From: an uncultured Chloroflexia bacterium
Lineage (GTDB): Bacteria > Chloroflexota > Limnocylindria > Limnocylindrales > CSP1-4
Assembly: GCA_963736545.1 (NCBI GenBank)
Contig: CAVTPA010000001.1
Span: 1,467,248 to 1,531,247 of the forward strand
Length of the DNA stretch: 64,000 nucleotides
Direction: 5' to 3'
Shown here in pieces: positions 6,367-53,146 of the stretch. The notes under the pieces are model-generated. The model was given only the letters and a program-made list of their open reading frames with translations. It did no database searches and was not told the DNA's origin. A program made the translations under genes and the position numbers. Each line of letters starts with the position of its first letter. Within the stretch, counting starts at the first letter, position 1.

Positions 6367-6569
6367 CGCGCGTGGCCACCCGGTGCGTCGGCACACCGCC
6401 AGAAGGTACGGGACCCCCGTAGCGGTGCGGGGTGTGGCAGGATCACCCGGATCGGTCTGCCGACCTCGAGCCGCCGGCGCTCCCCAGGGCGCGGGTGTGG
6501 CGCCGGTCCGATCGTCGCTCGCCGTGCGCGGATGCCGTGCCGGTGGAGCCGACGCGAACCGGAGGGATC

Positions 6570-24134: not shown

Positions 24135-28444
<4,310 letters not shown>

Positions 28445-28448
<4 letters not shown>

Positions 28449-29359
28449 CCCTTCGTGGAGCCCAGGGTGAGGCCGCTGATGAACTGCTTCTGGAGGGCGA
28501 AGAAGACGATGAGCGTCGGGATCGCGACCATGATGGCGCCGGCGGCGATCAGGTTGTTGTCGGTGAAGAACTGGCCCTTGAGGTTGGTTCAGGGCGGACG
28601 TGATCGGCCGCTTGTCGCCCGTGAACATGAGGACCAGGGCCCAGAAGAAGTCGTTGTAGATCCAGGTGAACTGGAGCGTGGCGAGGGCGGCCAGCGCCGG
28701 CCGCGTCAGCGGCATGATGACGCGTCCAGTACGTCCGCCAGACGCTCGCCCCGTCCACGACGGCCGCCTCGTTCAGCTCCTTCGGCAACGTCTTCATGTA
28801 GTTGCTGAGGACGAACGTGCAGAAGCCCAGCTGGAAGGCGACGTGGATCAGCCATGATCCCGAGGTACGAGTCGTAGACGCGCCCGTTGTCGTTCAGGAG
28901 CTCGGGCAGCGGCAGGAGGTTGTAGAGCCGGAACAGCGGGGTGATGATGACCTGCGGCGGCAGCAGGTTGCCCGCCGTGAAGATCATCAGCAAGACGAGG
29001 TTGAAGCGCCAGCTGTAGCGCGACACGGCGAACGCCATCATCGAGGCCAGCAGGAGCACGAGGATGACGGCCGGGACGACGATGATGAGCGTGTTGATGA
29101 AGTACTTGACGAGCTCGCCCTTGGTCCAGGCGTTGATGTAGTTGTCGAGGTTGTACACGCCCCCGATCGAGACGTAGCCGAGCCGGTTCGTCTCGTCGTA
29201 CGGGCGGAACGACGTGTAGACGGCCCACGCGATCGGGAAGAGCCAGACGAGGCTGATCGCGATCAGGAAGGCATGGAGGCCCCACCGCCGGAGCTGCTTC
29301 CTGCGCCGCGCCGCGCTGCCGTCGTAGGTGCCGGCCGGCTCGATCGCGATCTCGGTCAC
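28445..29359 (-). pseudogene. Carbohydrate ABC transporter permease (MalG/CUT1-type), frameshifted
   Basis: GTG at 29359 overlaps the upstream stop (GTGA). VTEIAIEP...LFPIAWAVYTSF..., MKTLPKELNEAAVVDGAS, FTWIYNDFFWALVLMFTGDKRPIT and the C-terminus ...[19 protein letters not shown] lie in different frames. Confidence 0.75.
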
Positions 29360-30331
29360 TCGTTCTCCTCCCGGAGGGCGCGGACGAGGTAGACGATGAT
29401 CGGGCCGACCGCGACCACGAGCAGGACGACGGCGATCGCCGACCCGAACCCGATCCGGCTCGTCTCGCCGATGATGTTGTTGGTCATGAGCGTGGAGAGC
29501 AGCTCCAGGCCGTTGAGGCCCTTGTTGATGATGAAGGCGATGTCGAACGCGCGGAGCGACTCGATCACCGTGATCACGAGGACCACGATGTTGATCGGCT
29601 TCATCACCGGGAAGACGACCCGGAAGAACGTCTGCGCTCGCTCGCGCCGTCGATCGCGGCGGCCTCCCGCAGGGCGGGGTCGACGGCCTTGAGGCCGGCC
29701 AGGTAGAGGACCATGATGTAGCCCGACGTGGCGCCAGCTCGCCGCGACGAGGACGGCCCACAGGTTGATGTTCGGGTCGCCGAGCCACGAGATCTGGTTG
29801 CCCTGCGCCGTCCTGCCCAGGATGTTGTTGATGAACCCCTGCTCCGGGGCGTAGATGAGGATCCAGATGAAGCCGACGATCGCCAGCGAGAGGACGACCG
29901 GCATGTAGAGCACGCTCTGGTAGATCCGGGTGCCGCGGATGTTCTTGTCGAGCAGGACCGCGAGGAACATGCCGAGCGGCGTCGCGATGAGCAGGAAGAA
30001 GATCAGCCAGATGATGTTGTGCCTGAGCGCCGGCCAGAACGGCGGGTAGACGTTGACGAGGTTCTCGTAGTTCTTCAGCCCGATGAACTTGATCGCGTCG
30101 AGCCCGCCGATGCCGTTCCAGCTGGTGAACGAGAGGACGACCGAGGCGAGGGTCGGCAGCCAGATGAGGACGACGACGAGGAACGTCGGGATGCCCACCA
30201 TGAGGCCGAGCGTGATCTTGTCGCGCCGGGTGAGCAGGCTGAAGCGCCGCCGACGGCGCGGCGAATGCTCCCGCCCCGCCGGCGGAGGCCGGCGGGGCGG
30301 GAGGCACCGAGGTCGTGCCTTGAGCGGTCAC
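29356..30331 (-). pseudogene. Carbohydrate ABC transporter permease (MalF/CUT1-type), frameshifted
   Basis: ORF 29356..30201 holds most of the protein. A compensated double shift at about 29640-29740 replaces the EAA-loop region, and the N-terminus (GTG at 30331) is in another frame. Confidence 0.7.
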
Positions 30332-30354
30332 GGTCGGTAGGTTACGGCGCCTGT

Positions 30355-31707
30355 CTACTCCTGCGGAGGCAGGGTGTCGTAGAAGGCCTGGATCTCACCC
30401 AGGAACACGTCGAGGTCCTGGTTCGGGTCGGTCAGGAAGTCGATGAGGAAGCCCTGCATGCCCGTTCGGCCCGGCGAAGTCGGCCCGCGTGTCGCGGTCG
30501 AGGAACTGGGCGATGTTGCCGGCGTTCTCCGATGACTTCGGCCGACATCTTCTGGACGTCGGTGTAGCCGCTCGTGTCGGCCATCGGCGAGACGGCGACG
30601 CTGCCGATGCCGGGGCTGGTCACGTAGACGACCTGGGCCTCGGGGGTGGCGAGGCACTCCAGGAAGGCCTTGGCGGCGTCGGGGTTCTTCGGGTTGGCGC
30701 TCAGCATGAAGCCGTCGATCGGGGCGTCGATCGCCTTCTCGCCGTCGAACTCGGTGCCGAGCAGCGGGAACGGGAAGAAGTCGAGTCGTCGGTGCCGAAC
30801 TCGACCGGCCTGCTCGACCGCGAACGTGCCGAGGAAGTACATGCCGGCGCCTTCTCGACGAGCGCGGCCTGCGCGGCGTCCTGCCACGTGCGGCCGGGAG
30901 CGCCCTCCTGGAAGTACGGGAGGAGGTCACGCCAGTACTCGAAGACGGCCTTGGTCTTCGGGTCGTTCCACTTCTCCGTGCCGGCCATCAGGCCGACGTG
31001 GAAGTCGTAGCCGTTCAGGCGCATGTTGAGGATGTCGAACGTGCCCATCGCCGGCCAGCCGTCCTGGTCGCCGAAGGCGAGCGGGACGAGGCCGTCGGCC
31101 TTCATCTTGTCGCCGAGGGTCTTGAACTCGTCGATCGTCGTCGGGATCGTGTAGCCCTTCTCCTCGAAGAGGCTCTTCCGGTAGAGGACGACCCACGGGT
31201 AGTTGTAGAACGGGATGAAGTACTGCTTCCCGTCGTCGCCGGCGACGCCGCCTTGAAGGCTCGGGGTAGTGTACTGCTCGATCTCGGCCCACACGTCGTG
31301 ATCGGCGACAGCGAGGCCCTGGACGGCGAAGAAGCGCATCGCGGTAGCCGGCGAACCACGTGAACGACGTCGTCCGGCGTGCCCTGGAGATACGAGCTGA
31401 TCTGGTCCTGGAACGTGCCGTGGTCGACGATGTTGATCTTGACGGTGATGCCCGTCTGCTCCTGGCAGTAGTCGACGATCGCCTGGACGGCGTTCTTCGG
31501 GCTCTCGTCGCTCTCGTTCGAGCCGAGGGTGGTCTCGCCGAGGCCCTCCGGCGGGGTGGACGGTGCCTCGGTCGCGGGCGCCGAGGTGTCGGACGGTGCC
31601 TCGGTCGCCGGCGCGTTCGTCGCGGCGTTCGAGCACGCGGTCACCAGCAGCGCCATGGTCGCCAGTCCGACCAGCGCGCGATGTCGCATGGTGATAGCTC
31701 CTGCCAT
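30355..31707 (-). pseudogene. Sugar ABC transporter substrate-binding lipoprotein, frameshifted
   Basis: ATG at 31707, 6 nt after GGAGGA. Lipobox LVTACS. Homologous segments lie in ORFs 31102..31707, 30701..31846, 30432..30887 and 30355..30930. Confidence 0.75.
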
Positions 31708-31866
31708 CGTTGCTCCTCCAAAGGGACCTGCGACAGAATCGAACAGGTTCGCTCGCAGTGTGCGCGCCCGCTTCGGTCCGTGTCAAGGCTGCTGCCCCGC
31801 TGAACGGCGGCATTCTGTGCGACTCCGTTGACTTTCGTGCGTTCATGGCGCACTCTTCCGTCCACC

Positions 31867-32746
31867 ATGCAGGAAGGACGCGTCGCCGAGTCGGGCCGAG
31901 GCGAGGCTGCGCCGCCGGTGGACGGCAGCCGCGTGCTGCTCGCCCGCCAGCGCCAGACCCGGATCCTCGAGCGGGTCCGCGAGGACGGTGCGGTCCGGGT
32001 CGCGGAGCTGGCCCGCGAGCTCGGCGTCTCCGACATGACGGTCCGGCGCGACCTGGAGGTCCTCAGCGATCGCGGGCTCCTGGAGAAGGTGCACGGCGGC
32101 GCGACCACCGCTCGACGGACCGCTCGCTCTTCGAGCCGAGGTTCGCGGCCAAGTCGTCTCTCCAGCAGGCCGAGAAGGACGCCATCGCCGCGGCCGCGGC
32201 GACCCTCGTCGAGCCGGGAATGGCGATCGCGCTCTCGGCCGGGACGACGACGTACGCGCTTGCCCGGCAGCTCGTCGACACTGCCCGGACTCACCGTGGT
32301 CACCAACTCGATCCCCGTCTCGGACGTCCTCCACCACGGACGGCCGGCCGGACCAGACGATCATCCTCACCGGCGGCGTCCGGACGCCGTCGGAGGCGCT
32401 CGTCGGGCCGTTCGCGGTGGCCGCCCTGCGCACGGTCCACGTCGACCTCGTGTTCATGGGCGTGCACGGCATGGACCCCCACTCGGGGTTCACCTGTCCC
32501 AACCTCCTCGAGGCCGACACGGACCGGGCGCTCATCGAGGCGGGGCGGCGCCTCGTGGTCGTCGCCGACCACACGAAGTGGGGCGTGATCGGGATCAGCT
32601 CGATCGCCCGGCTCGACCAGGCCGACGTCCTCATCACCGATCGCGGGATACCGAGGGAGGCGCGCCCGGAGCTCGAGCGCGCCGTCCGCCAGCTCGCCGT
32701 CGTCGATCCCGACGCGACCGAGAGGGCCACGATCGATGTCAGCTGA
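31867..32746 (+). pseudogene. DeoR-family transcriptional regulator, frameshifted; start uncertain
   Basis: HTH part (RQTRILERVREDGAVRVAELARELGVSDMTVRRDLEVL) is in the 31828 frame. Sugar-binding parts (AIALSAGTTTYALARQL, LTVVTNSIPV, VDLVFMGVHGMD...VVADHTKW) are in other frames. Confidence 0.7.
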
Positions 32747-41132: not shown

Positions 41133-43248
41133 ATGAGCGAGCACACCATCGACCGGCGGGCCGCCCGTCCGACCCGGGCCGTCGTGGCGATCGTCGCCGT
41201 CGTCGCCGCCCTCCTCCTGATCGCGCTCGTCGCGACGGGCATCGCCGCGAGCCCGACGCGCAACCTCCCCGCCTGGAGCGACCTCGACACGCGGTGGGGC
41301 ACGTACCTCTCCGAGCGCGAGTGGGGCACGCCCCGCGAGGCGGTCGGCGGCAACGGCTGGGGCCTCGACTACCTCGACGCGGTCAAGACCGACTACCGCT
41401 TCGGCGAGGACGGGATCGCCGGCCTCACGACGCGGGACGGCGAGTTCGCGATCGGCTGGGCCGTCTGGGACGGCCGCCAGGTCGTCGTGGCGGAGCGCCT
41501 CTTCGGGTGGGGCAACCCGTCCGGAGAGCACGGCGAGGAGATCGTCGACCGGCGGACGTTCGGCCCGAACACGCCGACCAGCAGCTACCACCGCTACGTG
41601 CTCGAGTACCCGGCCGCCGAGCCGACGTTCGAGATCGCCTTCGAGGGCGCCCGCGCCGACGCCGCATCGGGCGTCCTGCGGGCGACCGCGACGAACACCG
41701 GCGACGAGACGCCGCACCCTCGACGTCGTCCTCAAGGGCTGGTTCCACGACCGCGAGCAGCGCGTCGAGCTGACGCCCGACGGTCTCCTCCTCCACGGGG
41801 CCGCGTCCGTGGTCGCGATCGTCGGGCTCGACCCGGCGAGCGCCCAGGTCAGCGACGAGAAGCGGGCGCTCGACAGGAACCTCCGGGACGGCGGGCTCTC
41901 CGGCGAGGGCCCCGGGCACATCGGCGCCCTCGCCTATCGCCCGGAGCTGGCGGCGGGAGCCACCGAGGTCGTCGACCTCGCCTGGGCCGAAGCCGCCGAC
42001 GCGGACGCGGCGGTGAAGCGGGCGAAGGAGCTGCTGGGCGGGGTGGGCGACGTGCTCGCCGTTCGGCGGGACGAGGCCGACGGCCTCTTCCGGGGCCGGG
42101 TCGCCGAGCACGAGGATGTCCACCGCCAGGCGCTGATGAGCCTCCTCTGGAGCCAGAGCCTCTACACGTGGGACGGCACGTCGTCCTACGACCCGGCCTG
42201 GGCCGGGAAGGTCGATGCGCGCGACGTCCTGATCATGCCCGACAAGTGGGAGTTCCCCTGGCTCGCCTCCTGGGACACCGCCTTCCAGGCCGTGACGGCG
42301 GCGCTCGTCGATCCCGAGCTCGGCGCCGACCAGCTGCGCTTCCTCCTCGGCGACCGCTGGCAGCAGCCCGACGGCGCCATCCCCTGCGCGGAGTGGGTCA
42401 TGGGCGTCGAGTGCCCGCCCGTCTTCGCCTGGTCGGCCCTGCGCGTCCACCGGGCCGGCGCGAGCCTCGACTTCCTGCGCGAGGTCTACCCCGGCCTGCA
42501 GCGCAGCTACGACCACTGGTGGGACGTCAACGCCGTCGAGCCGGCGGGGCTCTTCACCGGCGGCTTCCTCGGCATGGACAACCTGCCCCGCGGCCCGGGC
42601 CAGGCCCAGGCCGACGCCTCCGGCTGGATGGCGTTCTTCGCCCGCGACATGGCGACCATCGCGACGGCCCTCGGCGACACGGCGGCAGCGGACCGCTACG
42701 GGGCCGACGTCGCCCGGATCGCCGACGCGGTGAACGCCAACCTGTGGGACGAGGAGGCCGGCTTCTACTTCGACCTCGACGCGGAGGGCGACGGGTTCAT
42801 CCCCACGAAGTCGTACAGCGGCCTCATCCCGCTCGTGGCCGGGATCGTGCCGCCCGACCGGCTGGAGCGGGTCCTCGAGGCGCTCCGCGACCCGGCCCAG
42901 ATGCTCTCGGAGCACGGGGTCCGCTCCGTCTCGCGGAGCAGCGTGATCTACCAGCCCGGCTACGCGAAACAGCGGGGCGTCAACTCGAACTGGCGCGGCC
43001 CCGTCTGGGTGCCGATCAACTACCTGATCGTCGAGGCGCTCGAACCGCTCGACCCGGAGCTCGCGGCGACGATCCGGGAGCGGGTGGTCGACACGGTCGA
43101 GGCGGACTGGCAGGCCACCGGCCGCTTCCACGAGTACTTCCACGCCGACACGGGCGAGGGGATCGGCGCCGACGCGCAGGCCGGCTGGACGGCGCTCGTG
43201 GCGAACCTCGTCGAGGAGGGCTGGCCGGCGCCGGCGTCGGTCGAGTAG
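41133..43248 (+). pseudogene. GH63-like (MGH1/YgjK-type) glycoside hydrolase with N-terminal membrane anchor, one frameshift near 41715
   Basis: N-terminus is in the ORF starting at 41133; the remainder is in the 41809..43248 frame (WEFPWLASWDTAFQ, GFLGMDN, SNWRGPVWVPINYL). The join lies between NTGDET and TLDVVLKGWFHD. Confidence 0.7.
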
Positions 43249-43314: not shown

Positions 43315-45540
43315 TCAGGACGTGGCGGGTTCCATGGCTCCCACGCCCGCCGGCACAGCGGAGTCGGCCAGGCCGTCGGCGGGGCCGGGGCCCGCGGCCT
43401 CGTCGCCGTCGACGTCGGCAGGCTCGCTGCCGAAGACCCGGAGCACCGTCCGCCAGGTCGCCGCGATGACGCCGATGACCGGCACCGCCAGGAACATCCC
43501 GGCGATCCCCGCCACCGCCGCGCCGGCCGGGATCGCGAGCAGCACGACGGCCGGGTGGATGCTGACCGCCCGGCTGTAGACGAGCGGGGCCACGATGTTC
43601 CCCTGCACGATGTTGAAGACCAGCGTGAAGATGAGCATGATGAAGGCGTCCTGCGTCGAGCCGGTCGCGATCGTCACGAGCAGCGCGAGCCCCGTTGTCA
43701 GCGCGCTCCCGATGTACGGGATGAACCCGCCGAAGAACGACAGGACGGCGAGGGGCCAGGCGAGCGGGATCCCCAGCAGCCACATGACGAGGAACTGGGT
43801 CGCGGCGCCCACGGCGGAGATGGCGCCGGTCCCGATCATGTAGCCGCCGATCACGTTCGTGGCCTTTACCCCGGCCGCCTCGAGCTCGTCGTGGCGCCAC
43901 CGGCTCAGGGTCGCCGTCGCCGCCTCGAAGCCCCGGGCGCCGTCGCGCAGCAGGTAGAACGTCAGGATCGCCCCGAGGACGATGCTGATCGTGAAGGCGA
44001 CGAGGGCGCTCACGAGGACGACCGCGGCGTTGAGGAGGCTCGGCGCGATCGCGCTCACGACCGATGCAACAGACTGGCCTGAGTCGAGCAGGTCGTCCAC
44101 CTGGTCGGCCCCGATCCCCGCCTGCGCCACGATCTCCTGCATCGGTTCCACGAGCGCGGCCAGCGTGAGGACGAGGATCGCCAGGACGACGCCGAAGCCG
44201 CCGATGGTCATCGCCAGCGACGCGGTGGTCGGTGTCGCGCCCCGCTGCAGCAGGGCCCGCACGCCGGGAGCCAGCGTCGCGGCCAGCACCGCCGCGATGA
44301 CGAGCGGGACCAGGATGAGCGGCACCTGGAGGATCGCGGTGACGGCCGCGGCGCCCACGGCGACGAGGACGAGGAGGCGCCAGCCCCACTGGGCGAGCCG
44401 GTCCAGCCAGCGGGGCACGAGCCCTGCCCCCGGCTCCGGGGCGGCGGTCCCGTTCAACGCCCGGATGACCGCGGGCACCATCTCGACCAGGACGACCGCC
44501 ACGGGGACCGCGAGGATTAGGCCCACCATACCGGCGACCACGACGCCGATCGTCAGGGCCACGAGGACGAGCGCGGGATGCACGCCGTGTCCCTGCCAGC
44601 CGCCGGGCCGGACCAGCCGCGGCAGGAGGACGGTCGCGACGGCCAGGACCGCGACCGCCACGATGGCGGCCGCGCTGCCGCTCGACCCGAGCGCGATGAG
44701 GCCGACTGCCGCCGTCGCGGCGACGAGCCCGAGCAGCGGGACAAAGCCGCCGAGAAAGATGATGGCGCCGATCGCGAGGGGCGCCGGAAGGCCCAGGACG
44801 AGCGCGACGACGAGGGCGACCCCGCCCATCATGGTGGCCCGGAGCGCCGTCTCCCGGAGCGACCGGCCAAGGCGGCGTCGCGCGGTCGCCGTCGCGCCGC
44901 CGATCTCGTCCCGCTGCCGCTCGTCAGCGAGCTGGAGGGTCCAGTCGATCGCCCGGTCGGCGTCGGTCACGAGGAAGAAGAGGAGGAAGACGGCGAGGAG
45001 GAGGATCGTCGCCGTCGACGCGATCGCCGACACGGCGGTCGCCGCGGCCCCACCGACCCAGGAGGTGACGCCGTCGACGATGTCGCTCGCGAGCGTCTCG
45101 AGCTGCCGGGGGAGCACGTCCGTGTCCACCAGCCGCTGGAGCTGCTCCACCCCGTCGCGCAGGGCGCGCAGCAGGTCGGCGACGGCCGGGACGAAGGCGA
45201 TGACGAGCACGGCGATCACGGCAACGCCGATGCCGACGGCGGCCAGCGTCACGAGGCCGGCGACCTTCGTGGTCGAGCGGCCGCCGGCGCGCAGGCGCTC
45301 GGCAAGCGGATCGAAGGCGGCGGTCACGGCCGCCGCCAGCACCACCGATGCGACGACGGTGCCGAGGACGGCGGCTCCCGCGAGGACCACGAGGCCGAAG
45401 GCGACCACGACGAGGAGACGCCACCCGAGGCCCGCCGACTGGGCGAGCCAGTCGGGAACAACCGGTTGATCGGGCGGGCGATCGACAAACGAGGTCAGGG
45501 GGCGAGCCTCCGTGCGGCAGCAGGCCGGCGCATCGCGCAA
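43315..45540 (-). CDS. Tandem-fused AI-2E (PerM/UPF0118) family transporter: two complete modules in one 741-aa protein
   Basis: Each half begins with the same element (PDWLAQSAGLGWRLLVVVAFG / PRWLDRLAQWGWRLLVLVAVG). The second half carries FGGFIPYIGSAL and VFNIVQGNIVAPLVYS, typical of AI-2E. The exact start is uncertain. Confidence 0.7.
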   Translation of the reverse strand: MRDAPACCRTEARPLTSFVDRPPDQPVVPDWLAQSAGLGWRLLVVVAFGLVVLAGAAVLGTVVASVVLAAAVTAAFDPLAERLRAGGRSTTKVAGLVTLAAVGIGVAVIAVLVIAFVPAVADLLRALRDGVEQLQRLVDTDVLPRQLETLASDIVDGVTSWVGGAAATAVSAIASTATILLLAVFLLFFLVTDADRAIDWTLQLADERQRDEIGGATATARRRLGRSLRETALRATMMGGVALVVALVLGLPAPLAIGAIIFLGGFVPLLGLVAATAAVGLIALGSSGSAAAIVAVAVLAVATVLLPRLVRPGGWQGHGVHPALVLVALTIGVVVAGMVGLILAVPVAVVLVEMVPAVIRALNGTAAPEPGAGLVPRWLDRLAQWGWRLLVLVAVGAAAVTAILQVPLILVPLVIAAVLAATLAPGVRALLQRGATPTTASLAMTIGGFGVVLAILVLTLAALVEPMQEIVAQAGIGADQVDDLLDSGQSVASVVSAIAPSLLNAAVVLVSALVAFTISIVLGAILTFYLLRDGARGFEAATATLSRWRHDELEAAGVKATNVIGGYMIGTGAISAVGAATQFLVMWLLGIPLAWPLAVLSFFGGFIPYIGSALTTGLALLVTIATGSTQDAFIMLIFTLVFNIVQGNIVAPLVYSRAVSIHPAVVLLAIPAGAAVAGIAGMFLAVPVIGVIAATWRTVLRVFGSEPADVDGDEAAGPGPADGLADSAVPAGVGAMEPATS

Positions 45541-45748
45541 GGATGCGTCATGGCAGGTCCGCTGTCGAGGCGAGCATGCACGATCACGATCGGGGACGGG
45601 TCACCCGGACCGGGCGATCGTCGGCCCGCGCATTCGGGCGCGGAGGCGATCGCGCAGGCACGGCTCGACGAGCGCTTCTTCCGGCGCCCCGGCCTCGGGC
45701 CGACAGCAACCGACCCCTCGGCCGCCGGGGTTGGGGTGCGTCGGCCGC

Positions 45749-46903
45749 CTACGGGGCCGGCGGCGAGCCGGGGAAGATGATCCCCTTCACCGGGTACGTC
45801 CAGCCCGCCTCGGCGGTCGGAAGGACCGCCCACATGCCGTACGACAGCCCCTCGTACCCACCCGTCCCCTCGAACCAGAACAGGATGACGTCGCCGTTCT
45901 TCGTCGAGAACGAGCCGGTCAGCGTGCCGTCCCAGGCGCCGCCGGCGTTCTCCAGCCGCCCGCTGCCCCACTGCACGTGGGCGAACTCGGTGCCGCTGCC
46001 CCACATGTCGTAGTTCCACGAGTACGTGACGGGGCCGCTGACGCGCGGGTCGTTGCTCGTGTCGATGCAGGTGAGGACCCAGCCCCGGCTCTGTGTCGTG
46101 CCGTCCTCGGAGACGGTCTCGGTCCCCTCCGTCGCGGCGCAGGCCTCGGTGCCGGCGACGATCGTCGCCGGGCCGTAGTCGTACGGCTCGGGGGTCGGCT
46201 CGGGCGTCGCGACCCCCGGGGCGACCGTCGGCGTGGCGGCGGGTGCCGGCGAGCCGGCGGCGGCCTGGCGCAGGGCGGCATCGTCCCCGGGCTTCGGCGC
46301 CGGCGGCGAGCCGGGGAAGATGATCCCGTCGACCGGGTACGTCCAGGCCACCTCCGCCGGCGAGAGCAGCGCCCACATCGCGTAGGAGAGTCCCTCGTAG
46401 CCGCCGGATCCCTCGAACCAGAAGAGGAGGATGTCGCCCCTCGGCGTGGAGTACGAGCCGGTCATCGTGCCGTCCCAGGCGCCGCCCGCGTTCTCCAGCC
46501 GGCCGGTCCCCCATTGCACGTGGGCGCTCTGCGCCCACCCGTCGTACTCCCACGTGTACGTCACCGGGCCGCTGACGCGGGGGTCGTTCGACGTGTCGGT
46601 GCAGGACAGGACGGCACCGCGGTAGCGCCCGGTCCCGTCGGCGTCGGTCGTGGTCGTCCCCTGCTTCTCGAAGGTGCACGACTCGGTCCCGCTGACGACG
46701 GTCGCCGCGCCATAGGCGATCGGCTCGGGCGTGGGCGACGGGGCCGGGGTCTCGGTCGGCGCCGCGGTGGGAGCCGCCGGCGGCTTCGCCGTGGGGGGTG
46801 GCGTGGGTGCCCCGGTTGGCGTCGCGCCCGAGCCGCAGGCGCCCACGAGAAACGCGACGGCGAGCATCGACTGCACCCGACCGGCCACGTTCGGCCTGGT
46901 CAT
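45749..46903 (-). CDS. Lipoprotein with two tandem copies of an unassigned ~145-aa domain (NDPRVSG ... WG.GRLENAGGAW.G ... FWFEG.GGYEGLSY ... GIIFPGSPPAP)
   Basis: ATG at 46903 after GGAAGG. Lipobox LVGACG, PT/PA linker, and two repeats that each end in GIIFPGSPPAP; the second is followed directly by the stop. Confidence 0.75.
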   Translation of the reverse strand: MTRPNVAGRVQSMLAVAFLVGACGSGATPTGAPTPPPTAKPPAAPTAAPTETPAPSPTPEPIAYGAATVVSGTESCTFEKQGTTTTDADGTGRYRGAVLSCTDTSNDPRVSGPVTYTWEYDGWAQSAHVQWGTGRLENAGGAWDGTMTGSYSTPRGDILLFWFEGSGGYEGLSYAMWALLSPAEVAWTYPVDGIIFPGSPPAPKPGDDAALRQAAAGSPAPAATPTVAPGVATPEPTPEPYDYGPATIVAGTEACAATEGTETVSEDGTTQSRGWVLTCIDTSNDPRVSGPVTYSWNYDMWGSGTEFAHVQWGSGRLENAGGAWDGTLTGSFSTKNGDVILFWFEGTGGYEGLSYGMWAVLPTAEAGWTYPVKGIIFPGSPPAP

Positions 46904-46947
46904 GGCGAACCTTCCTTCTGCGTGGGGGCCATCAGGGGTCCGAACCC

Positions 46948-47568
46948 CTACCCCCCGGCGCGATCCGCCGCGGCGTAGGTGATGGCGCCCCGGAAGTCGA
47001 TGACCTCGGGCGACGGGGTGCCGATCGGCACCAGCGGCGCGGTCACCCGCGCGTCCCCCCCGCCCGTCGCGTGCGCGAAGCGGCCGGTCCCGCCGACGGC
47101 CCACCAGTCGAGGAGCCCCACGACCTCGCCCTTCGCCAGGTCGATCGCGAACGTGCCGCTGAACGACAGCTCGAGGACGTCGCCGTTGGCGGCCTGAAGG
47201 AACCACTGGGCGTCGCCGACGTCGCCGGTCAGCGTCGCGAAGTCGATCCGCGTGCAGTGCGAACCCCTCTCGACGACGGAGCCGAGGTGGCTCACGATCC
47301 CGGTGCCCTCGTAGGAGAGGACCCAGTTCGCCGCCGGGGAGCAGCGTCCTCCGAACGTGTCGCGCGCGAACGGGAAGCCGTCCGGCACCTGCGACTGCCA
47401 GGCGACATCCTCGATGTGACCCGCGATGGGCACGGTGCTCATCAACTGCCCGTTGGCGGCCATCGCCGGCGATACCGCGCCGAGCACGAGGGCCAGGGCC
47501 GAAAGAACGGCGACCGCGCGCGGAAGCCGTGCGTCCGGTGCCGGCAGCGCCGGCGTCGAGATCTTCAC
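46948..47568 (-). CDS. Secreted protein of unknown function (GGTGRFAHATG motif)
   Basis: GTG at 47568, 9 nt after AGGAGG. Signal peptide AVAVLSALALVLGAVSPAMA. No confident family. The GTGRFA motif recalls dirigent/AOC-barrel-like folds, from memory only. Confidence 0.55.
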   Translation of the reverse strand: MKISTPALPAPDARLPRAVAVLSALALVLGAVSPAMAANGQLMSTVPIAGHIEDVAWQSQVPDGFPFARDTFGGRCSPAANWVLSYEGTGIVSHLGSVVERGSHCTRIDFATLTGDVGDAQWFLQAANGDVLELSFSGTFAIDLAKGEVVGLLDWWAVGGTGRFAHATGGGDARVTAPLVPIGTPSPEVIDFRGAITYAAADRAGG

Positions 47569-47629
47569 ACCACCCTGCCTCCTTGGCTTCGGGACGCGAG
47601 CGGGTGCTGCGACCGACAGCGTCGGCCGC

Positions 47630-48886
47630 CTACGGGGCCGGGGGCGAGCCCGGGAAGACGATCCCGTCGACCTCGGCGGCGCTGGCTCCTGCCGCCTTGT
47701 CGAGCGCCAGGTAGAAGGTCGAGCCCTCATGGGCACCGCCGCCCACGAGCCAGCACGACATGACGAGGGCGTCACCGTCCTGCCACGTCTCGCCGCTGCA
47801 GGGACCTTCCCATGAGCCCCCGTCGCTCTGGAGGCGGAACGGTCCCCACTCGGGGCCGAGAGCCCCGGACCTGAGTGGACCGTAGAGGTCGATGTCGAAG
47901 TCCCACGTCGCCACGCCGGTGACCCGCGGGTCGTTCATCGAGATCGTGAGCAGCGCCACCCCGTCGCGGATCTGGGTGACATCGCCGACTGTCCTCGTCG
48001 TGTACTGCGTCTGCAGGTTCGCCGCCGCGGTTCCCACGACGCGTTCCGCGCCCTCCCCGTCTGTCGGGAGTGCCGGCGTGGCGGTCGGCGTCCGCGCAGC
48101 CGCCGGCGTTGCCGTAGCTGCCGGAGTCGCGGCGACGACCGGGACCGGTGCTGTCGCCGGAGCAGGCGCCGGCGCAGGGGGCGAGCCCCGGAAGATGATC
48201 CCGTCGATCTCCAGGACGTTCGATCCGCGGGCGCGGAAGTAGTAGGTGTAGCCCTCGTAGGCGCCGCTGCCGACGAGCCATGCCGTCACCTGCGACGCGT
48301 TGCCGGTGTTCCACAGCGCTCCGGTCCAGGTGCCCTCCCAGGCCCCGTCGGCGTTCTCCAGCCGATATGTCCCCCACTGCGGGCCGACGACCCCGTAGGA
48401 GTCGTTCGCGCCGCGGATGGTCCCCCTTCCGGTGACGCGCGGGTCGTTCATCGTGTCGACGGTGCTTGCCGCGACTCCGCGCATCCGGACGACGTCCCCG
48501 GCCTTCTCCGAGGTCCCGAACGTCTCCACCGAGACGACCTCGGTCCCCGTGACGACCGCGTTGCCCAGATGGCTCCGTTCCGGCGTCGCCGGCGTGGTCG
48601 TTGCTGGAGCTGCTGTCGGCGCGGGGACCGGCACGAGCGACGTGCGCTGGCCCCACGGCGCTCCTGCCCCAACCGACCAGGCGAGCAGCGCAGCGAGGAG
48701 GGCAGCCGAGATGACGACCGAGGCCGGCACCGGCAGCGGGACACCGAGCCAGGCGAAGACACCGCGGCGTCGCGGCCGAACGGCGTGGGCTGCGACCGCC
48801 GTGGCGTCCACGCTCGTCTCCGCACGATCGGCGAAGGCGCGGACCGCGGCTGTGAGCTGCGCGTCGAAGCCGTCGAGCTCAGGCAT
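47630..48886 (-). CDS. Anti-sigma-factor-like single-pass membrane protein whose extracytoplasmic part is two copies of the same unassigned domain
   Basis: ATG at 48886 overlaps the sigma stop (ATGCCTGA). About 55 cytoplasmic residues, one TM (VVISAALLAALLAWSV), then two repeats with MNDPRVTG, WG..RL...G.WEG, LVG.GA.EG and DGI(I/V)F(R/P)GSPPAP. The protein ends ...FPGSPPAP. Confidence 0.65.
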   Translation of the reverse strand: MPELDGFDAQLTAAVRAFADRAETSVDATAVAAHAVRPRRRGVFAWLGVPLPVPASVVISAALLAALLAWSVGAGAPWGQRTSLVPVPAPTAAPATTTPATPERSHLGNAVVTGTEVVSVETFGTSEKAGDVVRMRGVAASTVDTMNDPRVTGRGTIRGANDSYGVVGPQWGTYRLENADGAWEGTWTGALWNTGNASQVTAWLVGSGAYEGYTYYFRARGSNVLEIDGIIFRGSPPAPAPAPATAPVPVVAATPAATATPAAARTPTATPALPTDGEGAERVVGTAAANLQTQYTTRTVGDVTQIRDGVALLTISMNDPRVTGVATWDFDIDLYGPLRSGALGPEWGPFRLQSDGGSWEGPCSGETWQDGDALVMSCWLVGGGAHEGSTFYLALDKAAGASAAEVDGIVFPGSPPAP

Positions 48887-49424
48887 CGGAGAGCTCCCTC
48901 CGCAGGTGCGCGAGGAGGCGGGCGAGCCGCCAGCGGACGGTCGCGGCCGGTCGGCCGGCAAGAGCGCCGATCTCTGTCGAGTCGAGACCCGCCTCGTAGC
49001 GGAGGGCGAGGAGGGCACGCTCGTCGGGAGAGAGGTGGCGAAGGGCAGCCTCGAGGTCGAGCGCGGCGGCCCGGTCGGCCGGGTCGCGGGCGAAGCCTTC
49101 GGGTGGGTCGACGTCGATCTCGACGACGGCCCTACGGCGCTGCCGGCGGCATGCCTGGCGCGCCTCGTTGGCCGCCACGGAAACGAGCCACGGCTTCAAA
49201 CGATCCGGGTCGCGGAGCGAGCCGAGCTTCCGCCAGGCCACCGACCATGCTGCCTGCACGGCGTCGTCGGCGAGCTCCTGGTCGCCGCTCGCAACGACGT
49301 AGGCCACGCGCGTCATGTCGCCGTGATAGGCGGCCACGATCCGGGCGAAGGCGACCGTATCGCCGGCCGCCGCCAGGCGGATCGTCGAGGTGGCCATCGC
49401 GGCGTCCCGCGCCAGACCTGTCAT
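48879..49424 (-). CDS. ECF-type RNA polymerase sigma-70 family factor; start uncertain (49397, 49424 or 49472)
   Basis: Region 2 (DDAVQAAWSVAWRKLGSLRDPDRLKPWLVSVAANEAR) and region 4 (LSPDERALLALRYEAGLDSTEIGALAGRPAATVRWRLARL). Confidence 0.8.
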   Translation of the reverse strand: MTGLARDAAMATSTIRLAAAGDTVAFARIVAAYHGDMTRVAYVVASGDQELADDAVQAAWSVAWRKLGSLRDPDRLKPWLVSVAANEARQACRRQRRRAVVEIDVDPPEGFARDPADRAAALDLEAALRHLSPDERALLALRYEAGLDSTEIGALAGRPAATVRWRLARLLAHLRRELSDA

Positions 49425-49800
49425 ATCCAGTAGATGCCGGGAGGCCGTCGGGTGTTGGAGGCGGCCCCGCATCCCGCGGGCAGTCTGGGCGCGGCCGGCA
49501 TCCCGACCAGTGCCGGAGGGCCCCGCCCTCGAGCAGGCTGTCAGCGCGTGGTGGGCGGTCGGGGTGGCCGGCCCGTTCTCGATACGGCAGCGTCGGCTTC
49601 ACGCACGGAAGTGCCATCGCACCGGCGGTCTGCGGGGAGAGCCGGGGACTTACGTGCTCGACGCGGCCCTCTTCGTATCGGCGCTCGGCCTCCGGCCATC
49701 GGCGCCGCCACGGCGGACCCTTCACGCTCAGAGCGCCGGGCGGACCTCCTCGGGACGCGGCTCCGGCGCGCCCGGCTTCGGGGCGCTCGTCGCGGCGCGA

Positions 49801-50703
49801 TCAGGCGCGGGTCGCCATCTCCGCCTCACCCGCCCCCGCCGGGGTGTAGTAGCGCCGGTACTCGCCCGGCGACATGGCGAAGGCGCGGTAGAAGACCCGG
49901 TAGAACTGGTGGAGGTTCGTGTAGCTGACCGCGCGGGCGATCTCCGCCACCGACAGGTCGGTCGAGAGGAGGAGGCGCTTCGCCTCGGCCAGGCGGACGT
50001 TCGTCACGTACTCCTTGAAGCCGACCCCGGTGACGTCCTTGAAGACGTGGCGCACCCGCGACGGGCTGACGTGCACCACGTGGGCCACGTCGTCGAGGGT
50101 GATGCTCTCGCGGCAGTGGCGGTCGACGTAGGCGAGCACCGGCCGGATCTGCTCGCGGCGGTCGGCGGCGGCCCGGGCGGCCGCGTCCGCGGAGCCGGCG
50201 CCCCGGTCGCGGATGACCAGCCCGAGGGCCCGGCGGAGCGTCGCGTCGAGCAGGTGCCGCTCGGTCGGGTCGTGCCGCGCCGACGCCTCGTGGAGCTCTG
50301 CCAGGACCGGCGCCAGCTCGGCAGCGAGGCATGTGCCGCCGCAGACCCGCGGCGACGCCACGCGCTCGTCGACGCGGAACGGGGCGAGGTAGCCGAGGTC
50401 GAGCTCGCGGCAGCCGGGGCCGGCGATGAGCTCCGGGCGGAAGAGGACGAGGAGGAGCCGCAGCGGCGCGTCCGGGTCCGCCACCGCCACGTGCGGCTGC
50501 GAGTTGTCGATGAAGAAGACGTCGCCCGGCTCGGCCGGCAGCTCCCGTCGTCCGAACAGGAACGCCCCGCTCCCCTCCAGCACGAGCGCGATCTCGAGGT
50601 GGTCGTGCCAGTGCATCCGGTCGTCGCCGTCGCCGGTGCGGTACTCGAGGACGGCGAGCGGGAAGGCCGGGTCGAGCTCGAACGGCCAGACGTGGACGGC
50701 CAC
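49801..50703 (-). CDS. AraC-family transcriptional regulator with N-terminal cupin domain
   Basis: GTG at 50703 inside ORF 49801..51195. MHWHDHLEIALVLEG, then the double HTH (ITLDDVAHVVHVSPSRVRHVFK ... LSVAEIARAVSYTNLHQFYRVFYRAF). Divergent from the reductase gene. Confidence 0.8.
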   Translation of the reverse strand: MAVHVWPFELDPAFPLAVLEYRTGDGDDRMHWHDHLEIALVLEGSGAFLFGRRELPAEPGDVFFIDNSQPHVAVADPDAPLRLLLVLFRPELIAGPGCRELDLGYLAPFRVDERVASPRVCGGTCLAAELAPVLAELHEASARHDPTERHLLDATLRRALGLVIRDRGAGSADAAARAAADRREQIRPVLAYVDRHCRESITLDDVAHVVHVSPSRVRHVFKDVTGVGFKEYVTNVRLAEAKRLLLSTDLSVAEIARAVSYTNLHQFYRVFYRAFAMSPGEYRRYYTPAGAGEAEMATRA

Positions 50704-50953
50704 GGCGTGTCTCGGGCTCAGCCGGCGGGGACGCGAGGGGAGGCGGTCGGCATGGACGGATCGTCCGGGCCGGACAGCCGCGTCCGACAGGGCCACATGG
50801 ATCGATCTGCGCGCCCCCAGCGGCCCTCGCAGCCGGTTCTGCCAGTCAATCGGCCCGCTCTGGCATTGCCGTCGGGCGCTTGCGGGGCGAGCATCGGGCC
50901 AACGCGAACGCCCCGCGGCATCGAGCGCTGCCGCGCGACCAGGAGGCCCGGCG

Positions 50954-53146
50954 ATGCCCTTCCCGCATCTCTTCAGCCCGCTCCAGCTCGGCACCATGGA
51001 GCTCCCCAACCGGATCGTCCACGTGCCGACCGACATCAGCTCGTCGCACGCGGACGGCGAGGTGAGCGAGCGCGACATCCACCACCACACCGACATCGCC
51101 CGCGGTGGGACCGGCTTCGTCATCGTCGGCGCGACGACCCCCGACATGAAGACCGGGCGCCCCACGGTCACCTGCCTCGTGGCCGACGGCGACAACTACA
51201 TCCCCGGCCTCGCCCGGCTTGCCGAAGGGATGCACCGCTACGGCGCGAAGTGCGCGGTCCAGCTCCAGCACCCCGGCCGGCAGTGCGCGATCCCGCGCTA
51301 CAACACGCTCGGCGCCACCGACCGCGTCCTCAAGCTCCCCTGGTCGGCCGGGCACGAGATCATCTACGAGAACGCCGAGGAGAAGGGCAAGGAGATCCGC
51401 GAGGCCTCGATCGCCGAGATCCTGGAGCTCGTCGACCTCTTCAGCGAGGCCGCCTGGCGGGTGAAGCAGGCCGGCTTCGACGCCGTCGAGCTCCACGCGG
51501 CCCATGGCTACCTGCTCTCCGAGTTCATGAGCCCGTACCTCAACATGCGGACCGATCGCTTCGGCGGGTCGTTCGAGAACCGGATGCGCTTCCCCCTCGC
51601 CGTCATCGACTCGATCAGGAAGAAGTGCGGGAAGGGCTACCCGATCCTCGTCCGCTACTCGTTCGAGGAGTGGTGCGAGGGCGGCCGCGGCATGGAGGAG
51701 GGCCTCGAGACGGCCCGGGTCCTCGAGCGCGCCGGCTGCGCTGCGCTCGACCTCTCGCAGGGCATGCAGGAGAGCCCCGGCGCCGGCTTCGACCCGCCCC
51801 CCTACCCGCAGGGCTGGGCGACGTACGCGGCCGAGGCGACGAAGAAGGTCGTGAAGATCCCGATCATCACGAGCCACTCGCTGCGCGACCCCGAGTACTG
51901 CGAGCAGATCCTCGCCGAGGGCAAGACCGACCTCGTCGGCCTCGCCCGCCAGCTCCTCGCCGACCCGTACTGGCCGGTGAAGGCGAAGATGGGCCGGGTC
52001 AAGTCGATCCGCCGCTGCATCTCCTGCCTCGGCGGCTGCTGGCAGGAGTCGCTGATGGCGAAGAAGGAGATCGCCTGCTCGATCAACGCGGCCTGCGGCA
52101 ACCCGGCCTTCGCGAAGATGAAGCCGACGTCGCGACCGGTGAACGTTGCGATCGTCGGCGGCGGGCCGGCCGGCATGGAGGCGGCGCGCGTCGCCGCCGA
52201 GCGCGGCCACCGCGTCACCCTCTTCGAGAAGCACGACGAGCTTGGCGGGGCGATGCTCTACGTCTGCCTCGTCCCCGGCAAGGAGAAGATGCGCTGGTAC
52301 CTGGACTGGATCCGGGACCAGGTCCTCGAGCTCGGCGTCACGGTCCGGCTCGGCCACGCCCCGACGGTCGACGAGCTGCGCGGCTTCGACATCGTCCTCA
52401 ACGCGACCGGCGCCGTCTCGTACGTGCCCGAGGTCGCCGGCGACGCTTCGCGGGTCGTGCCATTCGAGGAGTCGATGGCCTGCCCGAAGATCGCCTGCGA
52501 GTGTCACCCGGGCGGGCGGCGGATGCGCAAGCTCGGGGCGCGGGTGCTCCTCTGGGGCGACAGCTACGCCGCGACCGACACGGCGGCCTTCCTGGCCGAC
52601 ATCGGCCGGGACCTCACGATCGTCACGGAGAACCGCGAGTTCGCCGCCGACTGCGAGGTCATCCACATGTACGTCCTGCGCAAGCGGTTCGAGCAGGGCG
52701 ATGCCGAGGTACTCAGCTCCCGGCCGTACAAGCACCCCGTGAAGGTGATCACGAGCACGACGGTCGAGTCGATCGACGGGACGACGGTCGTCCTCCGCGA
52801 CCGCGACTTCAACCGCACGACCATCGAGGTCGACGACGTCGTCACCTGCCACACCCGCCCGGAGCCCGGGATCTTCGGCGAGCTGCGCGCGGCCGGCGTC
52901 AACGTGATCACGGTCGGCGACGCGATCAAGCCGCGGAACCTCTACCAGGCCGTGAAGGAGGGCGCCACGTTCGGCCTCATGGTCGACGAGCACCTCCTCT
53001 TCAACCCGAACGGCGCGATCCTCAACGAGCTGCCGATGGACGTCCTCGGCCAGCTCACCCGCGTCGAGGCTCCGTCCTACACCGCCGAGCGGATGCGCGA
53101 GCTCGTCGCCGCGGCCGCCGGCGGCAACGGGTCGGCCACCGAGTAG
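50954..53146 (+). CDS. FMN/FAD/[4Fe-4S] oxidoreductase of the 2,4-dienoyl-CoA reductase / 2-enoate reductase (OYE-fusion) family
   Basis: ATG at 50954, 7 nt after AGGAGG. OYE TIM-barrel (HAAHGYLLSEFMSP), Cys cluster CISCLGGCWQ...C, Rossmann VAIVGGGPAGMEAA. 730 aa, intact. Confidence 0.8.
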   Translation: MPFPHLFSPLQLGTMELPNRIVHVPTDISSSHADGEVSERDIHHHTDIARGGTGFVIVGATTPDMKTGRPTVTCLVADGDNYIPGLARLAEGMHRYGAKCAVQLQHPGRQCAIPRYNTLGATDRVLKLPWSAGHEIIYENAEEKGKEIREASIAEILELVDLFSEAAWRVKQAGFDAVELHAAHGYLLSEFMSPYLNMRTDRFGGSFENRMRFPLAVIDSIRKKCGKGYPILVRYSFEEWCEGGRGMEEGLETARVLERAGCAALDLSQGMQESPGAGFDPPPYPQGWATYAAEATKKVVKIPIITSHSLRDPEYCEQILAEGKTDLVGLARQLLADPYWPVKAKMGRVKSIRRCISCLGGCWQESLMAKKEIACSINAACGNPAFAKMKPTSRPVNVAIVGGGPAGMEAARVAAERGHRVTLFEKHDELGGAMLYVCLVPGKEKMRWYLDWIRDQVLELGVTVRLGHAPTVDELRGFDIVLNATGAVSYVPEVAGDASRVVPFEESMACPKIACECHPGGRRMRKLGARVLLWGDSYAATDTAAFLADIGRDLTIVTENREFAADCEVIHMYVLRKRFEQGDAEVLSSRPYKHPVKVITSTTVESIDGTTVVLRDRDFNRTTIEVDDVVTCHTRPEPGIFGELRAAGVNVITVGDAIKPRNLYQAVKEGATFGLMVDEHLLFNPNGAILNELPMDVLGQLTRVEAPSYTAERMRELVAAAAGGNGSATE

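Follow-up and report, generated by a model that had tools for sequence, protein, structure and literature searches.

Background

The envelope stress system sigmaE-RseA-RseB of Escherichia coli combines an extracytoplasmic function (ECF) sigma factor, which has an autoregulated promoter, with a single-pass anti-sigma factor and an exported partner on the ectodomain of the latter. Short anti-sigma segments are known as well, for instance those of the CnrY-type class II. Chloroflexota of the type treated here are abundant in soils and uncultured, and to our knowledge their signaling is essentially unstudied. According to PMC6066255, the ectodomain of the anti-sigma factor in the sigmaV-RsiV pair of Bacillus subtilis is proposed to be a receptor that binds the inducer directly, and in the sigE-cseA-cseBC operon of Streptomyces coelicolor the loss of the lipoprotein CseA raises the activity of the sigE promoter (PMC6767563). 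The present study deals with four genes on a 64-kb stretch of DNA from an uncultured Chloroflexota bacterium (contig CAVTPA010000001.1, positions 1,467,248 to 1,531,247; the whole stretch is called the window in the following). They code for an ECF sigma factor, a membrane protein, a secreted protein and a lipoprotein. We assign a probability of roughly 55% to the reading that they form an autoregulated ECF sigma/anti-sigma operon, in which a sensor with a barrel-shaped ectodomain is paired with a lipoprotein of the same family, the two being partly fused in this organism.

Organization of the operon and its promoter

The G+C content is approximately 74% across the whole window, and the four genes lie co-directionally on its minus strand. 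For comparison, loci carrying the module that is found in the membrane protein and the lipoprotein were collected from one genome per species with an alignment of eight module sequences as query, which yielded 29 loci (designated L001 and so on; homologous proteins are designated P0094 and so on). The features of the operon are the following (nt, nucleotides; aa, amino acids):

49431-49458, minus strand: putative autoregulated ECF-type promoter, CCAACACCCGACGGCCTCCCGGCATCTA, pattern CCAACAC-N16-GCATCTA
48879-49424, minus strand: sigma factor gene, ATG start
47630-48886, minus strand: membrane protein gene, ATG within ATGCCTGA, 8-nt overlap with the stop of the sigma factor gene
48758-48886, minus strand: cytoplasmic N-terminus of the membrane protein (aa 1-43) with a conserved block, putative short sigma-binding segment
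48671-48757, minus strand: transmembrane segment (approximately aa 44-72), from sequence and hydropathy
48170-48574, minus strand: module 1 of the membrane protein (aa 105-239), profile E = 1e-64, the original ectodomain
48062-48169, minus strand: Pro/Ala/Thr-rich linker, fusion junction according to the DNA alignment with L030/L031
47633-48061, minus strand: module 2 of the membrane protein (aa 276-418), a captured one-module lipoprotein
46948-47568, minus strand: secreted protein gene, GTG start preceded by AAGGAGG, 61-nt gap
45749-46903, minus strand: lipoprotein gene, ATG preceded by GAAGGAAGG, 44-nt gap
46835-46903, minus strand: predicted lipoprotein signal peptide with lipobox, MTRPNVAGRVQSMLAVAFLVGAC; AFLVGAC, LVGAC with Cys23
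46295-46717, minus strand: module 1 of the lipoprotein (aa 63-203), profile E = 1e-68, 87% identical to module 1 of the L001 lipoprotein
45752-46180, minus strand: module 2 of the lipoprotein (aa 242-384), profile E = 1e-69, 90% identical to module 2 of the L001 lipoprotein

These coordinates agree with a preliminary description of the locus, which had reported four co-directional genes with gaps of 44-61 bp and an 8-nt overlap between the genes for the sigma factor and the membrane protein. The G+C content at third codon positions is 0.86-0.96 in all four genes, which supports that they are real coding sequences.

The first gene encodes a protein of 181 aa that matches the Pfam families Sigma70_r2 (E = 2e-11) and Sigma70_r4_2 (E = 3e-8). 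Both PF04542 and PF08281/PF04545 exceed their cutoffs, and the protein possesses regions 2 and 4 without regions 1 or 3. Its score with TIGR02937 is 78.4 bits (NCBIfam cutoff 42.9). By its domain composition it is therefore an ECF (group 4) sigma-70 factor, as had been proposed. The classification goes as far as this general model: every other NCBIfam model stayed under its cutoff, including the second-best match, TIGR02983 of the SigE family (78.4 bits, cutoff 141.55), so that no named ECF subfamily could be assigned. The main text of the ECF re-classification paper contains nothing on Chloroflexi.

Downstream of the promoter motif follow CTGGAT and then the ATG of the sigma factor gene, which places the end of the -10-like element 6 nt before the start codon. 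The strict motif occurs once in the 64-kb window, compared to 0.1 copies expected from shuffled sequences. It is found at the identical distance to the ATG in L001, L015, L017, L030 and L031, and variants of the form (G/T)(C/A)AACA-N16-G(C/T)(C/A)TCT(C/A) exist in L004, L005, L007, L010 and L019. Unlike the genes for the secreted protein and the lipoprotein, the sigma factor gene has no Shine-Dalgarno sequence before its ATG. Taken together with the distance of only 6 nt, this indicates that the transcript is probably leaderless or nearly so. The position of the promoter also fixes the start of the sigma factor at 49424 rather than at 49472. The conserved motif implies that the operon is autoregulated via an ECF-type promoter, whose dependence on this very sigma factor is putative.

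Among the three gene starts upstream of which a promoter motif might be sought, i.e. 49424, 47568 and 46903, only the first is preceded by the conserved motif; no copy was found before the genes for the secreted protein and the lipoprotein. No sigma-70-type promoter was predicted in 45300-49800 either, and the two terminator-like matches in this region are both located inside the coding sequence of the lipoprotein. Since internal copies of the sigma promoter and sigma-70-type promoters are both lacking, the four genes can be read as one operon.

Further upstream, at 49507-49517 of the minus strand and thus some 85-95 nt before the ATG of the sigma factor gene, lies a second conserved block, TCCGGCACTGG, which is common to the window, L001, L015, L017, L019 and L030. 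At a similar place, L004, L005, L007 and L010 share a different block, CCGTTCGCCTCTCG. These blocks could represent the site of a regulator or a second promoter.

The membrane protein and its fusion with a lipoprotein gene

The cytoplasmic part of the membrane protein comprises about 43 aa with one histidine and no cysteine. The HxxxCxxC motif of zinc anti-sigma (ZAS) proteins is hence absent, as had been noticed before, and the segment is too short for the four helices in about 80-90 aa of a class I anti-sigma domain. An alignment of 11 proteins revealed that the block MPELDxF(D/E)xRLxxAVxxFADxAxTxVDAxxVA is kept irrespective of the ectodomain that follows. At every mapped locus, the start of this N-terminus overlaps or abuts the stop codon of the sigma factor gene. 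The description of the protein as a single-pass partner translationally coupled to the sigma factor is thus borne out by the 8-nt overlap and by the retention of the short N-terminus next to orthologous sigma factors in relatives. Because of this coupling and co-conservation, the 43-residue N-terminus is likely to bind the sigma factor. Prolines are conserved at the cytoplasmic edge of the transmembrane segment (LPVPAS), with P52 and W46 being nearly invariant; this would fit, without proving it, a substrate of a site-2 protease.

The preliminary description had attributed an ectodomain of two tandem modules to the membrane protein. Both modules are present in the window, but the arrangement is a derived one, and a single module is the common form. 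In L015, L017 and L030/L031, an anti-sigma-type protein with one module is followed by a separate one-module lipoprotein, with an ATGA overlap of the two genes in L030, whereas L001 possesses the order anti-sigma protein (one module), lipoprotein (two modules), lipoprotein (one module). Module 1 of the window protein shares 79% identity with the one module that the anti-sigma protein of L030 possesses, and 70% with that of L001. Module 2 is 74% identical to the one-module lipoprotein of L030 and 51% to that of L017, compared to 44% identity with module 1 of its own protein. In the DNA alignment, approximately 100 nt of L030/L031 are absent from the window. They comprise the stop codon of the anti-sigma gene, the ATG that overlaps it, and the coding sequence for signal peptide and lipobox of the separate lipoprotein; the linker sequence flanking this gap is conserved. 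The alignment thus identifies the membrane protein as an in-frame fusion of the anti-sigma gene with the neighboring lipoprotein gene.

Fused forms (407-427 aa; P0094, P0102 and P0103) and unfused forms (237-250 aa; P0204, P0229, P0235 and P0247) both occur in independent data sets, which argues against an artefact of the assembly. Gene fusion is a classical sign of parts that act jointly. The earlier suggestion that the sensor ectodomain is linked, functionally and physically, to its free paralogue on a lipoprotein hence gains support from this event; co-sensor, decoy and ligand carrier are roles that the lipoprotein might have.

The barrel module and its family

The module of about 140 aa is present in four copies in the operon, and their alignment shows 37 invariant columns, a similarity well above what chance would give. 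The identity to the first copy is 42-45%, and the two copies of the lipoprotein are 71% identical to each other. All conserved blocks quoted before, NDPRV(S/T)G, WG..RL(E/Q)..G.W(D/E)G, W..G.G.(Y/H)EG and GI(I/V)F(P/R)GSPPAP, were recovered in the four copies, and both module proteins indeed stop directly after FPGSPPAP. This is a general trait, since 105 of the 120 family members listed end exactly after the motif F-P-G-x-x-P-x-x.

With the lipoprotein as query, 159 proteins were retrieved, which are all annotated as hypothetical and all lack a Pfam domain. Almost without exception they are lipoproteins, either of about 212 aa with one module or of 330-390 aa with two. A signal peptide with lipobox is present in 148 of 254 family members examined. 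Each module copy of the window matches a family profile with E = 1e-38 to 1e-52. When a profile of 42 diverse modules was searched against 1.84 billion cluster representatives, 2,073 proteins matched at E <= 1e-3, of which 831 reached E <= 1e-10. Pfam has no match for the three non-sigma proteins of the operon or for the 42 modules, and the profile has no match among the PDB sequences at E <= 10. The earlier statement that the module belongs to no named family therefore stands for Pfam, for NCBIfam matches above cutoff and for PDB sequences.

With the same alignment of 42 modules as input, AlphaFold2 predicted nine antiparallel strands for module 2 of the lipoprotein (predicted local distance difference test score (pLDDT) 94.9, predicted template modeling (TM) score 0.86). 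The best structural neighbors are the DUF3224 proteins 2ooj and 2q03 with TM scores of 0.60-0.65; the other ones found with Foldseek are the cyclases PloI4, PyrI4 and AbnU, a DUF3237 protein, a dirigent protein, avidins and lipocalins. The module is thus confidently predicted to be an all-beta domain. Its resemblance to small closed barrels of the ligand-holding class is weak and at the level of the fold class only. Going by this fold class, a ligand of the module would be expected to be small and hydrophobic or amphipathic.

Two unusual family members deserve mention. P0234 (416 aa) combines regions 2 and 4 of an ECF sigma factor with an anti-sigma-like linker, a transmembrane helix and a single module in one polypeptide; either sigma and anti-sigma factor are genuinely fused here, or the gene call reads through from one gene into the next. 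P0133, in which a STAND NTPase precedes the modules, was rejected as a new architecture, since a lipoprotein signal peptide in the middle of the chain points to a chimeric gene call.

Linkage to ECF sigma factors in related genomes

Almost all of the 29 loci originate from metagenome-assembled genomes labelled Chloroflexia, Chloroflexota or Limnocylindrales, some of them with 72-73% G+C, and a few distant copies of the module were detected in Actinomycetota. All loci were translated in six frames, and sigma factor, anti-sigma N-terminus, module and secreted protein were mapped on the translations. In 12 related loci, an orthologue of the window sigma factor with 53-89% identity lies upstream of the module gene and on the same strand, namely in L001, L004, L005, L007, L010, L015, L017, L019, L026, L030/L031, L033 and L035. 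When only loci found via the module alone are considered, an ECF sigma factor, orthologous or other, is positioned in this way in 13 of 29, a plain count without formal chance estimate. The gene with the conserved N-terminal block begins directly at the stop codon of the sigma factor gene, or overlaps it, in L001, L004, L005, L007, L015, L017, L026, L030/L031 and L033.

A second, unrelated type of N-terminus, ..WL(E/D)EGP..PDR..QRR.., is found on module proteins behind distant ECF sigma factors (33-41% identical) in L021, L024, L025 and L029. In L025 and L029 such a one-module anti-sigma-type protein is followed by an exported one-module protein. L024 carries three ECF sigma factor genes in tandem (3436-7023), the first two each followed by a one-module membrane protein, which indicates a local amplification of sigma/anti-sigma(module) pairs.

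In L033, the sigma factor and the lipoprotein are each 83% identical to those of the window, and the same flavin oxidoreductase gene lies nearby. The anti-sigma-type protein of this locus (797 aa) lacks the module and possesses a duplicated repeat ectodomain instead, and it is followed by a two-module and a one-module lipoprotein. L007 and L005 resemble L033 in that a module lipoprotein follows a module-less ectodomain. The respective genes, all with the N-terminus of the window protein, are:

L033, 3577-5970: module-less anti-sigma gene
L007, 3653-5803: module-less anti-sigma gene
L005, 1003-2910: module-less anti-sigma gene

In L033, the repeat ectodomain is made up of two copies of a unit of about 330 aa, and no precomputed Pfam match is on record for it; in L007, it is a 716-aa region with WxF/DG repeats. 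Such ectodomains may be a second uncharacterized sensor domain of the same sigma clade.

What stays constant across these loci is therefore a set of three, namely the sigma factor, the short N-terminus of the anti-sigma protein and the lipoprotein with the module. A co-conservation of the genes in related genomes, which the preliminary description had left to be checked, is therefore found for these three components.

Riboswitches upstream of module genes

Module genes without linkage to a sigma factor share a conserved leader, which Rfam recognizes as the cyclic di-GMP aptamer c-di-GMP-II-GAG (RF03169) with 49-79 bits (gathering score 40); one copy belongs to the GCG variant RF03170. The aptamers are located as follows:

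L034, six in 11 kb: 1308-1392, 3520-3604, 4897-4981, 6826-6904, 10175-10259 and 10923-11007
L003: 5689-5773
L006: 2917, 4872 and 5729
L008: 2472 and 3721
L012: 5685
L013: 1916
L014: 5761
L016: 4976
L018: 5819 and 8288
L020: 1556, 4175, 5660 and 7640

Genes of the module family follow 10 of the 22 aptamers, with the aptamer ending 11-23 nt before the start codon of the module gene (L003, L006, L008, L012, L013, L014, L016 and L018, and two genes in L034). Other genes behind these aptamers encode an alpha/beta hydrolase, a DUF4386 protein, and Polyketide_cyc2/SRPBCC-like, flavodoxin-like and methyltransferase-like proteins. No aptamer was detected in the 12 other sigma-linked loci scanned (L031 left out). 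The window gave no Rfam match at the gathering score, and none at E <= 1 in 45000-50200. The c-di-GMP-II-GAG variant reportedly comes from a 2017 survey of riboswitch variants and is said not to have been validated; its ligand was not found in the literature searched.

Lipoprotein and secreted protein

The lipoprotein is predicted as such by its lipobox, which matches the bacterial consensus [LVI][ASTVI][GAS]C. The secreted protein has 206 aa, a signal peptide ending in ..SPAMA/AN and the motif GGTGRFAHATG. Its AlphaFold2 model (pLDDT 89) matches the dirigent proteins PsPTS2 and GePTS1 in the PDB (Foldseek E = 1.3e-5 to 1e-4, probability 1.0, TM score 0.51-0.59), and the PloI4 cyclase was matched as well. 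The model thus suggests a dirigent/AOC-barrel-like fold, a similarity at fold level with no Pfam match behind it. A profile-profile comparison of the secreted protein and the module (hhalign) gave a probability of 1.8% and hence no detectable homology, so that the exported proteins of the operon share a fold class without a detectable common origin. A secreted protein of about 200 aa had been described as part of the cluster; it is present and intact in the window, but it is not a conserved part of the unit, since among the loci mapped only the window and L030-L032 possess it in the operon. No linkage to a sigma factor was found for remote homologues of this dirigent-like protein.

A small GC-rich hairpin, GGGGT-TCGG-ACCCC, with no T-run after it, stands right behind the stop codon of the secreted protein gene and before the ribosome-binding site of the lipoprotein gene (46904-46947, minus strand). 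Over their last 45 or so nt, the genes for the membrane protein and the lipoprotein have almost the same DNA sequence (minus strand, 45735-45751 and 47616-47632), and the identity extends 11 nt beyond the stop codon, with TAGGCGGCCGACGC in both genes. Gene conversion or a common 3' element could account for these shared ends. Another possible hairpin, GCGGCCGAC-GCT-GTCGGTCGC, follows the stop codon of the membrane protein gene.

Genomic surroundings

The neighbors of the operon in the window are:

49801-51195: gene for an AraC-type regulator, immediate neighbor, looks intact
43315-45540, minus strand: gene for an AI-2E transporter of 741 aa with two AI-2E-family domains in tandem (Pfam), adjoins the lipoprotein gene downstream, looks intact
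41221-43248: GH63-like gene, close neighbor, looks intact

No biosynthetic genes are present beside the operon according to the Pfam matches of the open reading frames of the window. The preliminary description had regarded many neighboring genes as broken. The immediate neighbors do not look so. A stretch with genes for an ATP-binding cassette (ABC) sugar transporter and GH2 at about 27-32 kb, however, yields only partial Pfam matches, in keeping with that remark. The open reading frames at approximately 26900-32000 match the N-terminal domain of GH2 alone, positions 88-230 of the profile for a solute-binding protein and, weakly, part of an ABC permease. At 28-32 kb, the G+C content falls to 0.675. 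These reading frames have the appearance of sugar-uptake genes that are frameshifted or in decay, although sequencing errors may also be the cause.

Split reading frames were also observed in the related loci, namely at L008 2683-3082, L011 6550-6907, L016 71-347, L019 5932-6313, L020 5977-6851, L026 5959-6789 and L035 2683-3231. The affected genes are module genes, except in L035, where it is the sigma factor gene, and all lie in long-contig metagenome assemblies. These splits are probably assembly frameshifts rather than biology, which calls for caution in the naming of pseudogenes in this lineage.

Elsewhere in the window, a 273-nt segment occurs three times (20115-20387, 20493-20765 and 21492-21764), the second and third copy having 99% and 76% identity to the first. 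The copies are spaced by 12-nt periodic GGNGTN repeats, whose opposite strand reads as Pro/Thr-rich linkers. The arrangement looks like a repeat-domain exported protein or like recently duplicated genes.

Discussion

In the reading that we favor, the ECF-type promoter of the sigma factor gene would give rise to a message that is leaderless or nearly so and that includes the three downstream genes. The membrane protein would be the anti-sigma factor. It would hold the sigma factor with its cytoplasmic segment of about 43 aa, supposed to form two helices, which is followed by one transmembrane helix and, outside the cell, by AOC/calycin-like beta barrels of the unnamed family. The barrel of the anti-sigma factor would pair, on the exterior side of the membrane, with a membrane-anchored barrel lipoprotein of the same family, and in this organism the partner would be fused to it as the second module. 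A small envelope or environmental ligand, probably hydrophobic or amphipathic, might bind to the barrels, or the contact between barrels might be lost. Either event would expose the anti-sigma factor to regulated proteolysis and free the sigma factor, a step that we propose because of the analogy with RseA and RsiV. The freed sigma factor would raise the expression of the operon, including that of the two-module lipoprotein and the dirigent-like secreted barrel, and both of these might bind or process the same compound and thereby feed back on the signal. The recurrent pairing of anti-sigma protein and lipoprotein, together with the fusion, favors a part of the lipoprotein in sensing. The lipoproteins may be both a partner of the sensor and an induced sink.

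Several results weigh against this proposal. The cytoplasmic N-terminus of the membrane protein has no anti-sigma match in Pfam or NCBIfam and falls far short of the length of a class I anti-sigma domain. No homologues were retrieved with the 88-aa N-terminus alone as query. Copies of the sigma promoter are lacking in the remainder of the window, too, so that a regulon beyond the operon is not visible. The pairing of barrels is not a general principle of sensing at L033, L007 and L005, where the anti-sigma ectodomains have no module. Most family members are free lipoproteins without a sigma factor nearby, many of them under riboswitch control, which fits an effector at least as well as a sensor. 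Finally, the best Foldseek match of the module in the PDB has E = 7e-3, with none at E <= 1e-3, and the postulated binding of a ligand then rests on the fold class.

The main rival explanation, which we regard as possible although we lean against it, accepts the sigma/anti-sigma pair but takes the lipoprotein and the secreted barrel as mere outputs without a part in sensing. Such surface proteins would be produced when needed, for example in order to bind, sequester or modify a compound or to alter surface properties, and the fusion would be an accident between adjacent genes. The occurrence of the same lipoproteins alone behind c-di-GMP-II-GAG aptamers at nine loci, i.e. as regulated effectors, would agree with this, as would their position behind the module-less anti-sigma proteins of L033, L007 and L005 and their co-transcription with, and hence induction by, the sigma factor. 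However, an anti-sigma protein with one module and an exported one-module protein recur as a pair in two lineages with different N-termini, the fused form has been retained in independent metagenomes (P0094, P0102 and P0103), and the module is the sole ectodomain of many anti-sigma-type proteins.

It appears unlikely that the barrels are enzymes of the cyclase, dirigent or Diels-Alderase type acting on an envelope lipid or a secreted metabolite. The structural neighbors do include the cyclases PloI4, PyrI4 and AbnU and pterocarpan-synthase dirigent proteins, and P0147 has a weak, sub-threshold match to a GDSL/SGNH-type hydrolase (25.1 bits, cutoff 32.9), but the module shares only 12-15% identity with these enzymes at weak E-values. 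Moreover, the use as anti-sigma ectodomain and the tandem copies in lipoproteins are typical of binding modules, and the operon stands apart from biosynthetic genes.

Still a little less probable is the view that the membrane protein is no anti-sigma factor, but simply an envelope protein that is transcribed along with the sigma factor, or else one that activates it. The missing family match, the absence of the zinc motif and the mere 43 or so cytoplasmic residues would be in line with it. They are countered by the translational coupling, by the retention of this N-terminus with this sigma clade despite swaps of the ectodomain, and by the precedent of short class II segments of the CnrY type.

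Membership of the module in a diverged form of the mycobacterial Rv2253/PknI extracellular sensor-like domain was rejected as very improbable, since the match of lipoprotein residues 75-157 to NCBIfam NF052447 (E = 1.8e-4) and NF052301 (E = 0.013) stays with 21.5 bits under the cutoff of 35 and is seen in 1 of 42 diverse modules only, the family profile finds no PDB sequence at E <= 10, and no PknI chain is among the top Foldseek matches, while structures of the PknI ectodomain have been deposited according to one paper.

Beyond the favored reading of the operon, one could assume that the barrel is a new extracellular receptor domain wired in three forms, as the sensor of anti-sigma factors, as a docking, membrane-anchored partner and as free surface lipoproteins. 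We put this forward very tentatively. Equally doubtful at present is the extension, that partner and sensor make up a two-piece receptor, fused in the window, and that the free lipoproteins are the main targets of c-di-GMP-II-GAG riboswitches in Chloroflexota. If this were true, one surface family would be under two controls, one by a signal from outside and one by a nucleotide-like signal from inside, and the ligand of the family would directly hint at what is sensed by the variant riboswitch.

A family that comprises at least 2,000 sequence clusters and is unnamed in Pfam and NCBIfam gains a confidently predicted fold and a recurrent role as ectodomain of putative ECF anti-sigma factors. The fusion leads to the testable prediction that the lipoprotein and the anti-sigma ectodomain form one receptor. 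The riboswitch control of the same proteins offers a handle on the variant c-di-GMP-II riboswitch, and the leaderless promoter together with the short anti-sigma segment could make a compact orthogonal regulatory switch.

Comparison with known systems

Like sigmaE-RseA-RseB, the operon of the window combines a sigma factor that is co-transcribed with a single-pass anti-sigma protein and an exported partner, an autoregulated promoter and a presumed proteolytic release. However, RseA possesses a full class I anti-sigma domain instead of a segment of about 43 aa, and RseB is LolA-like and no paralogue of the RseA ectodomain, whereas partner and sensor of the window share an unnamed barrel and are fused. 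The host also differs, being a member of the Chloroflexota, and the partner is a lipoprotein.

CnrH-CnrY-CnrX of Cupriavidus shares with the window a very short cytoplasmic anti-sigma segment and a separate exported sensing protein. In contrast, CnrX is a helical metal sensor that has no domain in common with CnrY, and there is no sequence similarity to the window proteins in Pfam and NCBIfam. The operon sigE-cseA-cseBC likewise includes a lipoprotein in an ECF sigma factor operon that modulates the pathway outside the membrane, but it has no anti-sigma factor and is under two-component control, and CseA is no paralogue of a sensor domain. RsiV comes close to what we propose for the window, since the exterior of a single-pass anti-sigma factor is proposed to bind the inducer directly; its fold is a different one, its ligand is lysozyme and it has no paralogous lipoprotein.

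At the level of the module, DUF3224 and AOC-barrel-like proteins (dirigent proteins, PloI4/PyrI4/AbnU) form antiparallel barrels with eight to nine strands, which resemble the fold predicted for the module. They have no sequence relation to the module and are cytosolic proteins of unknown function, plant proteins or biosynthetic enzymes, not ectodomains or lipoproteins. The targets of c-di-GMP-II riboswitches (RF03169, GAG) include relatives of the window lipoprotein, whereas the window itself is without such an RNA.

Overall, the logic of the operon is already known from sigmaE-RseA-RseB, CnrYXH and sigE-cseA. With respect to the family libraries and papers searched, the sensor domain, its sharing between anti-sigma protein and lipoprotein, the fusion of the two and the alternative control of the same family by a riboswitch are novel.

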